Position numbers and translations under genes: made by a program
Notes under the pieces: model-generated
What the model was told of the DNA's origin: nothing
What the model saw: the letters and a program-made list of their open reading frames with translations, nothing else
The model's database searches: none
Assembly: GCA_001244265.2 (NCBI GenBank)
Contig: CDLV01000007.1
Location: forward strand, 1,178,001-1,242,000
Origin: Microbotryum violaceum
Lineage: Eukaryota
Length of the DNA: 64,000 nt
Direction of reading: 5' to 3'
Part shown: piece after piece, positions 5,398 to 39,879 of the stretch
Numbering within the stretch: position 1 is the stretch's first letter
Layout: every line of letters begins with the position of its first letter

Positions 5398-6045
5398 GGT
5401 CTTTCTGCCAGAGTTCGGACGCTCGCGGTCCGCTTGCCGAGAGGCTTGGACTAGCTAGAGAAAGAAGAAGATATCAGTAAGGCGCGCCTTGAGGAATCTG
5501 CGCATTGCTATCCGCACCCACACTAGTCCACAATTCAACCATTTCCAAAATTCCAGAACCAATATCCACGTCCACCCCTCTCCACCTCCTGAACCAAACC
5601 TAAGGCAACGGCATTTGCAACGACGGATCGATGCTGCATTGTGATCTGACCCGTGACTCGGAGTGTGACAGAAGTAGTCGCGCTGGCACCCGCGCCGTAG
5701 CGCTGCAGTGCGCGCCGGGTGCCTGTCACATCAACTCCTAAAGTTACGGAAAGCGTGTCACAGTTTGCGTAGACATTTTTCTCGGGGTACTCTACATATC
5801 CCTAGGGTCCGGTCGACTCTGACGCCCCGTAAACTTCACATGGCGCTGACTCTTGATGCCCGCAGCTGCTCGACTCGGAGTCGCAGAACTTCGAGCTTCG
5901 AGAAGCCCACCGCCGCTGCCGCCGCTTTTCTCCAGCTTTCTCCCTGCCCCAGACCCAAGCCATCCATCGCCTTTTGCCGCATTGCGTTGAGAAAGGCCTG
6001 CATGTCATTCTTGCGTTCGACGACGTGCCGCTGTCTCCGAGTACC

Positions 6046-7057
6046 ATGAGTCTTAGCTTGCAGAGTCTCCCGGCAGAGGTGAGCGTTCTGTCGACGAAGT
6101 TCTCACATTGGCGGTCTGCTAGACCGGAGGGTATACTGATCAATGTGGTTTTTGCGTGCGGCTGAATGCGCTCGAGCACAGCTTCTCTACGCAATACATC
6201 TTCACTCCACCTCCTCAGCTCTCCCTTACGTCTCGAGACATCTCCATCGCGTCTTTAGCCACTCTTCGCCGCTTCATCGTACGACATATCTGGCGCTTCG
6301 GCATGATCGACATACACTCTCGCATGCGGTCAGATACCCAATCTGCACCCTTGCCGTCGTACATTCGCTTGAAAGGTTGGCTTGCGCGGTTGGGATGCGG
6401 CCCCTGCGCTGTTCGGAGCTACCCCGTCGACTGGTCAAACATCTCAACCCACAGCAGACCGACAGCTCAGCTACTCTTGACGATGACAAGTTCGGTCTGA
6501 TCGCATATCTGCTCGAACATTATGGCGCTTCTCCCAACTCCAAGAATGGCTACTTCCTGGCACGTGCCGTTCTTGCACGACATCTTCCCCTCACCAAACT
6601 TCTACTCCACTACGGCGCGGACCCAGCTCTGAAAGATGGGTGGGCTGTGATGGTAGCAATCGGTATGGGCGATCTAGACACGGTCAAATTGCTATTGGAT
6701 GGACCGACTCCAACAGTGGGCCGCGTAGAGGCGTCTGGCCGCGACAAGTCATCGTCATCTCATACCAGGTCTGATACGTTGCCACCTCAGGCCGCTTTCC
6801 TCGCTCGGCACTCGATCGGAACTACGCCTTTGCCACGCCCAAGTAAAAAGCGCTGCAAGGTATCCCCTCGCTGTTGTGCAACAAGTGAGATGCTAGAAGC
6901 CGCCGTCAAAGCTCAGCATTGGCACATTGTTGATTATCTACGCACTCAAGGTGGGTCATCATGTTCTTGGTCTCAAGAGATGAGGAGCGGCACACTGACG
7001 TCTGCAAGAAGTGTTCCAGGCGCGCTGCCCAGTTTGGAGGTTCTCAAGCTATTATGA
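6046..7057 (+). CDS. Ankyrin-repeat protein with an F-box-like N-terminus
   Basis: Exon 1 MSLSLQSLPAE|gtgagc is spliced to LLYAIHLH.... Ankyrin-like segments include LARAVLARHLPLTKLLLHYGADP and AIGMGDLDTVKLLL. Confidence 0.75.
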
Positions 7058-33916: not shown

Positions 33917-35841
<1,925 letters not shown>

Positions 35842-36165
35842 GTCGAAGGCTCGGTTGGGCAGCCGTTCGCAAAGCTTTGAGGCTGTTTGTTCACTCAAGA
35901 TATCTTGGTTCCCATTTTTCCAAAAAGCCCCTCGGATCAACTCATTGTGTTTTAACTAGTCATTGGGGATCTCCAATTAATGGATGCGAATAAAACGTTT
36001 TCAACCACTGAGAAAGCTCTCGACCGGGAAACTTCCCGACCCATTCGTCGGTCGGATGGACACTATTGGGTTTGCTTTATCGCATCTTCATTTCAAAAGA
36101 TCTTAGATGTACTTCGAGACAAGACCAACTCAGAATCCACAGCGATCACTACCACCCCGGCGAGT

Positions 36166-39879
<3,714 letters not shown>

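Follow-up and report, generated by a model that had tools for sequence, protein, structure and literature searches.

The stretch of DNA analysed here (64,000 nucleotides, hereafter the window) belongs to the basidiomycete Microbotryum lychnidis-dioicae p1A1 Lamole, an anther-smut fungus, and carries on its plus strand an ERG10 (acetyl-CoA C-acetyltransferase) gene at 33917..35841. In the gene model that we rebuilt from the raw sequence, nine coding exons (33917-19, 33986-34066, 34147-34350, 34494-34591, 34720-34797, 34879-34917, 35000-35076, 35154-35426 and 35498-35841) are spliced into a 398-residue product, and all 8 introns are of the GT..AG class, 66-143 nt long, with donors of GTnnGT type. 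The first coding exon consists of the ATG alone, and a 66-nt GT..AG intron (GTCAGT...CGCAG) begins right behind it, the two together occupying 33917-33985. The spliced model equals, end to end, the annotated acetyl-CoA acetyltransferase of M. lychnidis-dioicae p1A1 Lamole (P0002), a full-length protein with thiolase N- and C-terminal domains (PF00108, PF00109 and PF02803). Its last exon is 100% identical to that protein and matches Thiolase_C with an E value of 2.4e-39, and the junction of the last intron (35426/35498) is present in RNA contigs of two sequencing runs, X16 and X18.

A convergent gene of ARG5,6 type neighbours ERG10 on the minus strand (36064-38555), encoding a NAT domain (acetylglutamate synthase/kinase-type) together with a semialdehyde dehydrogenase domain. 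An 84-nt GT..AG intron near its 3' end (36196-36279) is seen in RNA contigs from X16, X18 and X20. Between two large minus-strand frames of the same locus lies a purine-rich run of GAA/GAG type (37180-37230); translated, it would give poly-Glu/Lys in one frame and, from the opposite strand, poly-Leu/Ser. It is probably low-complexity sequence within an intron.

The ERG10 coding sequence closes with a TGA at 35839..35841 (plus strand; context CTA TGA GTC), which ribosomes would need to misread for translation to continue, and no difference from the window is found at this codon in any of the runs that cover it (X16, X18 and X20). Because all 120 homologues among the matches listed stop at the aligned position, ending in -QRL, -QKL, -ERL, -QRV or similar, we regard this TGA as the normal end of the family. 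A native canonical PTS1 is present in none of the thiolase homologues listed. Comparison of lengths and N-termini sets the 398-residue, presumably cytosolic ERG10 protein apart from paralogues of 415-442 residues, which start with ML...-type leaders. This second type-II thiolase (P0025 and its paralogues), which ends in -QRL or -QRV, occurs in Microbotryum and in most Microbotryomycetes, and its N-terminal leader is presumably mitochondrial.

Behind the normal stop the frame stays open. The ERG10 protein ends ...IQRL-TGA, and 12 sense codons follow (35842..35877, plus strand), encoding VEGSVGQPFAKL, before a second in-frame TGA at 35878..35880. The complete string, CAG AGG CTA TGA GTC GAA GGC TCG GTT GGG CAG CCG TTC GCA AAG CTT TGA, thus reads QRL-stop-VEGSVGQPFAKL-stop. 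The last three sense codons, GCA AAG CTT (35869..35877), encode AKL, a canonical PTS1 tripeptide and one of the strongest, which the second TGA places at the C-terminus of any readthrough product. The residues ahead of the tripeptide are rich in Gly, Ser and Pro, and form a flexible tail with 0 acidic residues within 7 positions of AKL, a point against a fortuitous origin of the signal. In the first-pass annotation, this string had been described as a cryptic peroxisomal signal hidden in frame behind the ERG10 stop, and on the level of the DNA that description is accurate: letters and coordinates match exactly, and the extension continues the genuine ERG10 reading frame, as the identity of the nine-exon model with P0002 demonstrates. 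Its classification of AKL as a canonical PTS1 likewise agrees with import experiments in Saccharomyces cerevisiae, where either SKL or AKL was sufficient to send CAT to peroxisomes and oligomers containing untagged subunits were co-imported (PMC2120261).

To follow the extension into the transcript, we aligned assembled Logan contigs of four runs (X15, X16, X18 and X20) to positions 35300-36200. None of the runs is recorded as RNA, and X16, X18 and X20 are treated as RNA on the strength of their spliced contigs; X16, for example, is considered to hold RNA because its contig 5 is spliced at 35426/35498. Contig 7 of the same run covers 35703-36011 with 0 differences from the window, and the spliced X18 contigs extend to 35919, which is likewise past the extension. 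Since the X16 contig runs uninterrupted from 35703 to 36011, polyadenylation before 35880, an outcome that the first-pass annotation had envisaged, is contradicted, and the mRNA reaches past the second stop. The RNA contigs give the ERG10 3' UTR an extent of 35842..36011 (plus strand), with an AATAAA at 35989-35994; the X16 contig ends 17 nt after that hexamer, although contig ends can do no more than hint at the RNA end or poly(A) site. With the same reservation about contig ends, the ERG10 and ARG5,6-type transcripts may be only about 50 nt apart, as contigs reach 36011 and 36064, respectively. The remaining run, X15, contributes an unspliced contig over the intron 35427-35497 and leaves 35816-35870 without contig cover; because that contig is unspliced, X15 holds either DNA or pre-mRNA, and it was left out of the RNA evidence. 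A 169-nt skip in X15 was considered as a splice joint and rejected, as it has CT..TT ends and 175 other letters between its flanks, in a 1570-nt contig of which only 20 + 29 letters match. The 12-codon frame ending in AKL is therefore a real and transcribed sequence feature; with regard to function, it is a candidate only.

How often such a feature would arise by accident can be gauged from the window itself. Across its six frames, 13 of the 3420 stop-to-stop intervals of at least 3 codons (0.38%) end in the PTS1-like pattern [SAC][KRH][LM], 8 end in [SA][KR]L, and a single one, the ERG10 extension, ends in AKL. From a composition model, the expected shares of these three classes are 0.31%, 0.18% and 0.02%, respectively. 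When we restrict the count to stops that close open frames of at least 100 codons, a PTS1-like interval follows in 2 out of 242 cases, with about 0.9 expected. The other of these two, at 6166-6258 on the plus strand, ends in ...SPSRL behind a frame (5857-6165) that is not coding-like, and exemplifies the chance background. For one gene chosen in advance, the chance rate amounts to a few per thousand, which corresponds to about 0.1 cases among the roughly 25 real gene ends of the window and to a couple of dozen in a genome of several thousand genes. The caveat of the first-pass annotation that the signal could have occurred by chance is thus well taken: the sequence alone does not make the extension more than chance, and the ERG10 case stands above background because of the kind of gene involved rather than because of the statistics.

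One relative, approximately 95% identical to the window, is represented by contig 9 of X18 and contig 13 of X20, the X18 contig being spliced at the last ERG10 intron. Within the 39 nt of 35842-35880 we could place 3 differences, which are identical in X18 and X20. The first, 35843 T>A, changes Val to Asp and turns the stop context into TGA GA; the second, 35864 C>A, changes Pro to Gln; and the third, 35877 T>C, converts CTT to CTC and is synonymous in the Leu of AKL. No indels are listed for either contig (0 in both), and 0 placed differences fall in either TGA. A further 8 differences per diverged contig were counted without a position and may include the second TGA; they most likely fall in 35881-35919, because the end at 35919 is the only one that the X18 and X20 contigs share. 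Both contigs stop matching at 35919, where X18 continues with 10 unlike letters and then Illumina adapter, so that what lies beyond is either a sharp divergence of the 3' UTR or an indel about 40 nt past the second TGA, or else the end of the mRNA.

The pattern of these differences is equivocal with regard to selection. Replacements make up 2 of the 3 placed differences in the extension, both at codon position 2, whereas 10 of the 11 placed differences in the neighbouring part of the ERG10 coding sequence are synonymous; the single replacement there, T342M, is also the replacement seen in this exon in the annotated M. saponariae protein (P0004). By these counts, the extension evolves at about the silent-site rate of the adjacent exon. 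Because only some 28% of single changes in GCA AAG CTT TGA are harmless, we estimate that, at this divergence, the signal would survive in around half of neutral histories. A free linker joined to a fixed AKL is what a functional tag would predict, and it is also close to the neutral expectation. A loss of the frame or the PTS1 in relatives, which the first-pass annotation had named as refuting, is not seen in the one relative compared: at about 5% divergence, no placed change affects the frame, the AKL or either TGA, an outcome also expected in about half of neutral histories.

At greater distance, a metagenome scan returned 80 thiolase loci with 49-69% identity, a mostly bacterial-like set that is not informative on close relatives. 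Both stops are visible in 73 of them, and none of the 73 carries a PTS1 extension, which is in keeping with a fortuitous origin, and the only two fungal-looking loci (L001 and L002) have no such extension either. A protein collection search with a spurious ORF overlapping the stop (35838-35990), as a way to reach the relatives' DNA behind it, yielded no candidate.

We next consider how leaky the ERG10 stop is likely to be. In Ustilago maydis, according to PMC4207609, the first two nucleotides after UGA are the main determinants of readthrough efficiency, and UGA-CU is sufficient. This UGA-CU motif is absent at the ERG10 stop, where the window has GU at these positions and the relative has GA; the first-pass annotation had rightly pointed out that TGA-GTC is not the usual readthrough context, and the mismatch speaks for a fortuitous signal. 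UGA is described as the leakiest of the three stops, and work in human cells treated with G418 is cited for a ranking of permissiveness at position +4 of C > U > A > G. Nor is a stimulating RNA structure apparent: the fold of 35836-35925 has an MFE of -19.3 compared with a shuffle mean of -20.7 (z +0.44), and 129 of 200 shuffles do as well. A stem spotted by hand (35845-51/35861-68) was discarded, as its pairing would be broken by the 35864 C>A change of the relative. With UGA followed by GU or GA, with G the least permissive nucleotide at +4, and with no structure at hand, only basal readthrough is to be expected.

Taking these lines together, we give a probability of roughly one half to the reading that the AKL tag is fortuitous and supports at most a trace of unselected import. 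According to this reading, ribosomes would terminate efficiently at the UGA-G of ERG10, and only through basal error would near-cognate tRNAs decode the UGA to give ERG10 with the tail VEGSVGQPFAKL. The rare tailed protein would probably be bound by Pex5 and imported, and tailed subunits might bring along untagged subunits of the oligomeric enzyme, yet the imported amount would be tiny and we see no sign of selection that keeps the tag. Our inference is thus that readthrough does not exceed the basal level and that selection has not acted on the tag. The verdict weighs the base rate, with a couple of dozen chance cases per genome and only a few true ones, together with the missing motif, which counts strongly against a used signal, the enzyme class, which counts strongly for it, and conservation, which counts slightly for it. 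Also consistent with a fortuitous tag, the U. maydis survey of PMC4207609 lists 66 TGA-CT genes of which 3 are predicted to be targeted, all of them metabolic enzymes and none a thiolase. Among the points that pull in the opposite direction are that the enzyme is of a type with peroxisomal isoforms elsewhere, that its extension is the sole AKL among the 3420 intervals, and that the stop is a UGA. For the central claim of the first-pass annotation, a minor peroxisomal isoform of this thiolase, the outcome is accordingly divided: the frame, the AKL, the presence in mRNA and the plausible enzyme class all stand, but there is no UGA-CU, no splice route was found, and the conservation is near neutral.

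The strongest competitor, to which we assign somewhat less than an even chance, is that low-level readthrough of this stop has been selected, such that a near-cognate tRNA decodes the UGA at 35839-41, VEGSVGQPFAKL is added, and Pex5 imports the product, perhaps together with untagged partners. The arrangement of the locus is what such a system would need, with an in-frame, stop-free extension that ends in AKL and a TGA, that lies inside a mature mRNA (35703-36011, without a single difference from the window), and that follows the leakiest of the stops; in addition, the placed changes of the relative spare the frame, the AKL and both stops, the one in the Leu codon being synonymous. Set against this, both of the decisive CU nucleotides are missing and the G at +4 ranks lowest, no stimulating structure is seen, about half of neutral histories would also retain the AKL and its stop, the two replacements give no sign of constraint on the tail, and one of the 8 position-less differences per diverged contig may touch the second TGA. 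The narrower proposal that a peroxisomal acetoacetyl-CoA thiolase arises from leaky ERG10 termination at UGA-G, its yield multiplied by the co-import of untagged subunits of the oligomer, is one that we put forward only tentatively, at odds distinctly short of even.

The selected-readthrough reading has precedents. Cryptic PTS1 motifs reached by readthrough were reportedly described in U. maydis by Freitag in 2012, so that the class of mechanism has a basidiomycete example. Four U. maydis proteins, Pgk1, Tpi1, Rpe1 and Art1, for which the mechanism is proven, resemble ERG10 in that each is a cytosolic metabolic enzyme whose UGA is followed by an extension of about 10-20 residues, a PTS1 and a second stop (PMC4207609); the Rpe1 tail even ends in the same AKL (Table S1 of that paper). 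These cases all occur at UGA CU, however, whereas ERG10 has UGA GU (GA in the relative) and is known here from sequence and RNA contigs. The mammalian enzymes LDHB and MDH1 offer a similar comparison, as a minor peroxisomal form of a cytosolic oligomeric enzyme is made from one mRNA in each case, like the candidate ERG10 isoform (PMC4207609 and PMC4359377), but their context is UGA CUA(G) and is described as conserved across vertebrates, while ERG10 has been compared in one relative and has UGA GU. Contexts other than CU have been entertained in print, if only as predictions, given that, for vertebrate pyrophosphatases, Table S2 of PMC4207609 predicts extensions with a PTS1 after stops in the contexts TGA AGA and TGA GGG. 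Authors in the field have also remarked on the patchy distribution of readthrough-PTS1 sites and have likened the sequence downstream of the stop to a playground for evolution, and from that patchiness it follows that a young, lineage-specific case would not be odd.

Peroxisomal relatives of the enzyme itself are likewise on record, in other fungi and in plants. The thiolase of Candida tropicalis ends in AKL. This thiolase I is described as the dedicated peroxisomal acetoacetyl-CoA thiolase of an alkane yeast, and Pat1 of Yarrowia lipolytica, a type-II enzyme like ERG10, is a peroxisomal acetoacetyl-CoA thiolase as well (PMC11226914). Because alkane yeasts maintain dedicated type-II enzymes of this kind, peroxisomal thiolase activity can be considered useful in fungi; these proteins are, however, full gene products, while the ERG10 tag is hidden behind a stop. 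In Arabidopsis, alternative splicing of a cytosolic thiolase II, the enzyme family of ERG10, yields a peroxisomal isoform, ACAT1.3, an example of one gene serving two locations (bioRxiv 10.1101/2021.12.02.471048), whereas for ERG10 the RNA contigs contain no alternative junction and none is plausible. In the papers searched, no thiolase or acetyl-CoA acetyltransferase turned up among published readthrough-PTS1 cargoes, and the mentions of thiolase that were examined there concern other matters.

A different possibility is that the native C-terminus, -QRL, is itself a weak peroxisomal signal, which would make the downstream AKL irrelevant. QRL> is described as a validated, though weak and context-dependent, PTS1 in Arabidopsis, the rat mitochondrial acetoacetyl-CoA thiolase has been reported with a C-terminal PTS1, and most of the 120 homologues listed end in Q/E-K/R-L/V. 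Similar endings nevertheless recur in the 73 metagenome loci (ERV in 10, ERL in 7, EKV in 7, EKL in 6, and others), mostly bacterial-looking sequences with 49-62% identity, and since an ending of the form x-[KR]-[LVM] is so common in mostly bacterial thiolases, it is better understood as an old structural feature of the fold than as a targeting adaptation. A search of the literature found no fungal test of -QRL. The one localisation study in Aspergillus oryzae fused DsRed to the C-terminus of the thiolase (bioRxiv 10.1101/2021.12.02.471048), an arrangement that would mask any PTS1 and renders the result uninformative either way. We consider this explanation highly improbable.

Finally, the first-pass annotation had offered an alternative acceptor as a second route to the tag. 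In such a minor transcript, the acceptor-like sequence ttgggcag|cc, cut at 35862 (or an AG at 35842 or 35848), would be spliced to a donor within the last exon, and the frame would then run into ...PFAKL. Splicing is said to generate PTS1 isoforms of GAPDH in U. maydis and PGK in A. nidulans as it does for ACAT1.3 in Arabidopsis, and 54 donor/acceptor pairs (GT or GC donors in the last exon, AG up to 35868) would end in AKL. The pairs that keep the C-terminal ...CNGGGG..., however, would have introns of 27-51 nt with weak donors (GTGGTG, GTGGGG, GTGCCA, GTCATT or GC), the shortest real ERG10 intron being 66 nt, and longer introns would remove large parts of Thiolase_C. With no workable donor for the proposed acceptor, and with X16 contig 7, X18 contig 9 and X20 contig 13 all colinear and showing 35426/35498 as their sole genuine joint (allowing that contigs drop rare variants), this route falls away as very unlikely, the least probable of the readings.

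What the extension means depends on which of the two leading readings is correct. If the tag is fortuitous, ERG10 becomes a calibration case, an illustration that by chance a fungal genome should contain a couple of dozen cryptic PTS1 motifs that look perfect and follow a plausible enzyme, and for that reason a readthrough motif and wide conservation are needed before such a signal is believed. If instead the tag has been selected, the class of readthrough-PTS1 proteins would gain an enzyme of the sterol pathway and of beta-oxidation, a new cargo in an unusual context rather than a new type of system, and the principle would extend past glycolytic, pentose-phosphate and redox-shuttle enzymes and past UGA-CU. 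It would also imply that selection can exploit near-basal readthrough, and would bear on how much basal readthrough suffices to supply an organellar isoform of an oligomeric cargo. For the organism, use of the tag would mean that the enzyme that opens the mevalonate pathway and also catalyses the last thiolytic step for C4 units has a hidden peroxisomal pool in a plant pathogen of the Pucciniomycotina.
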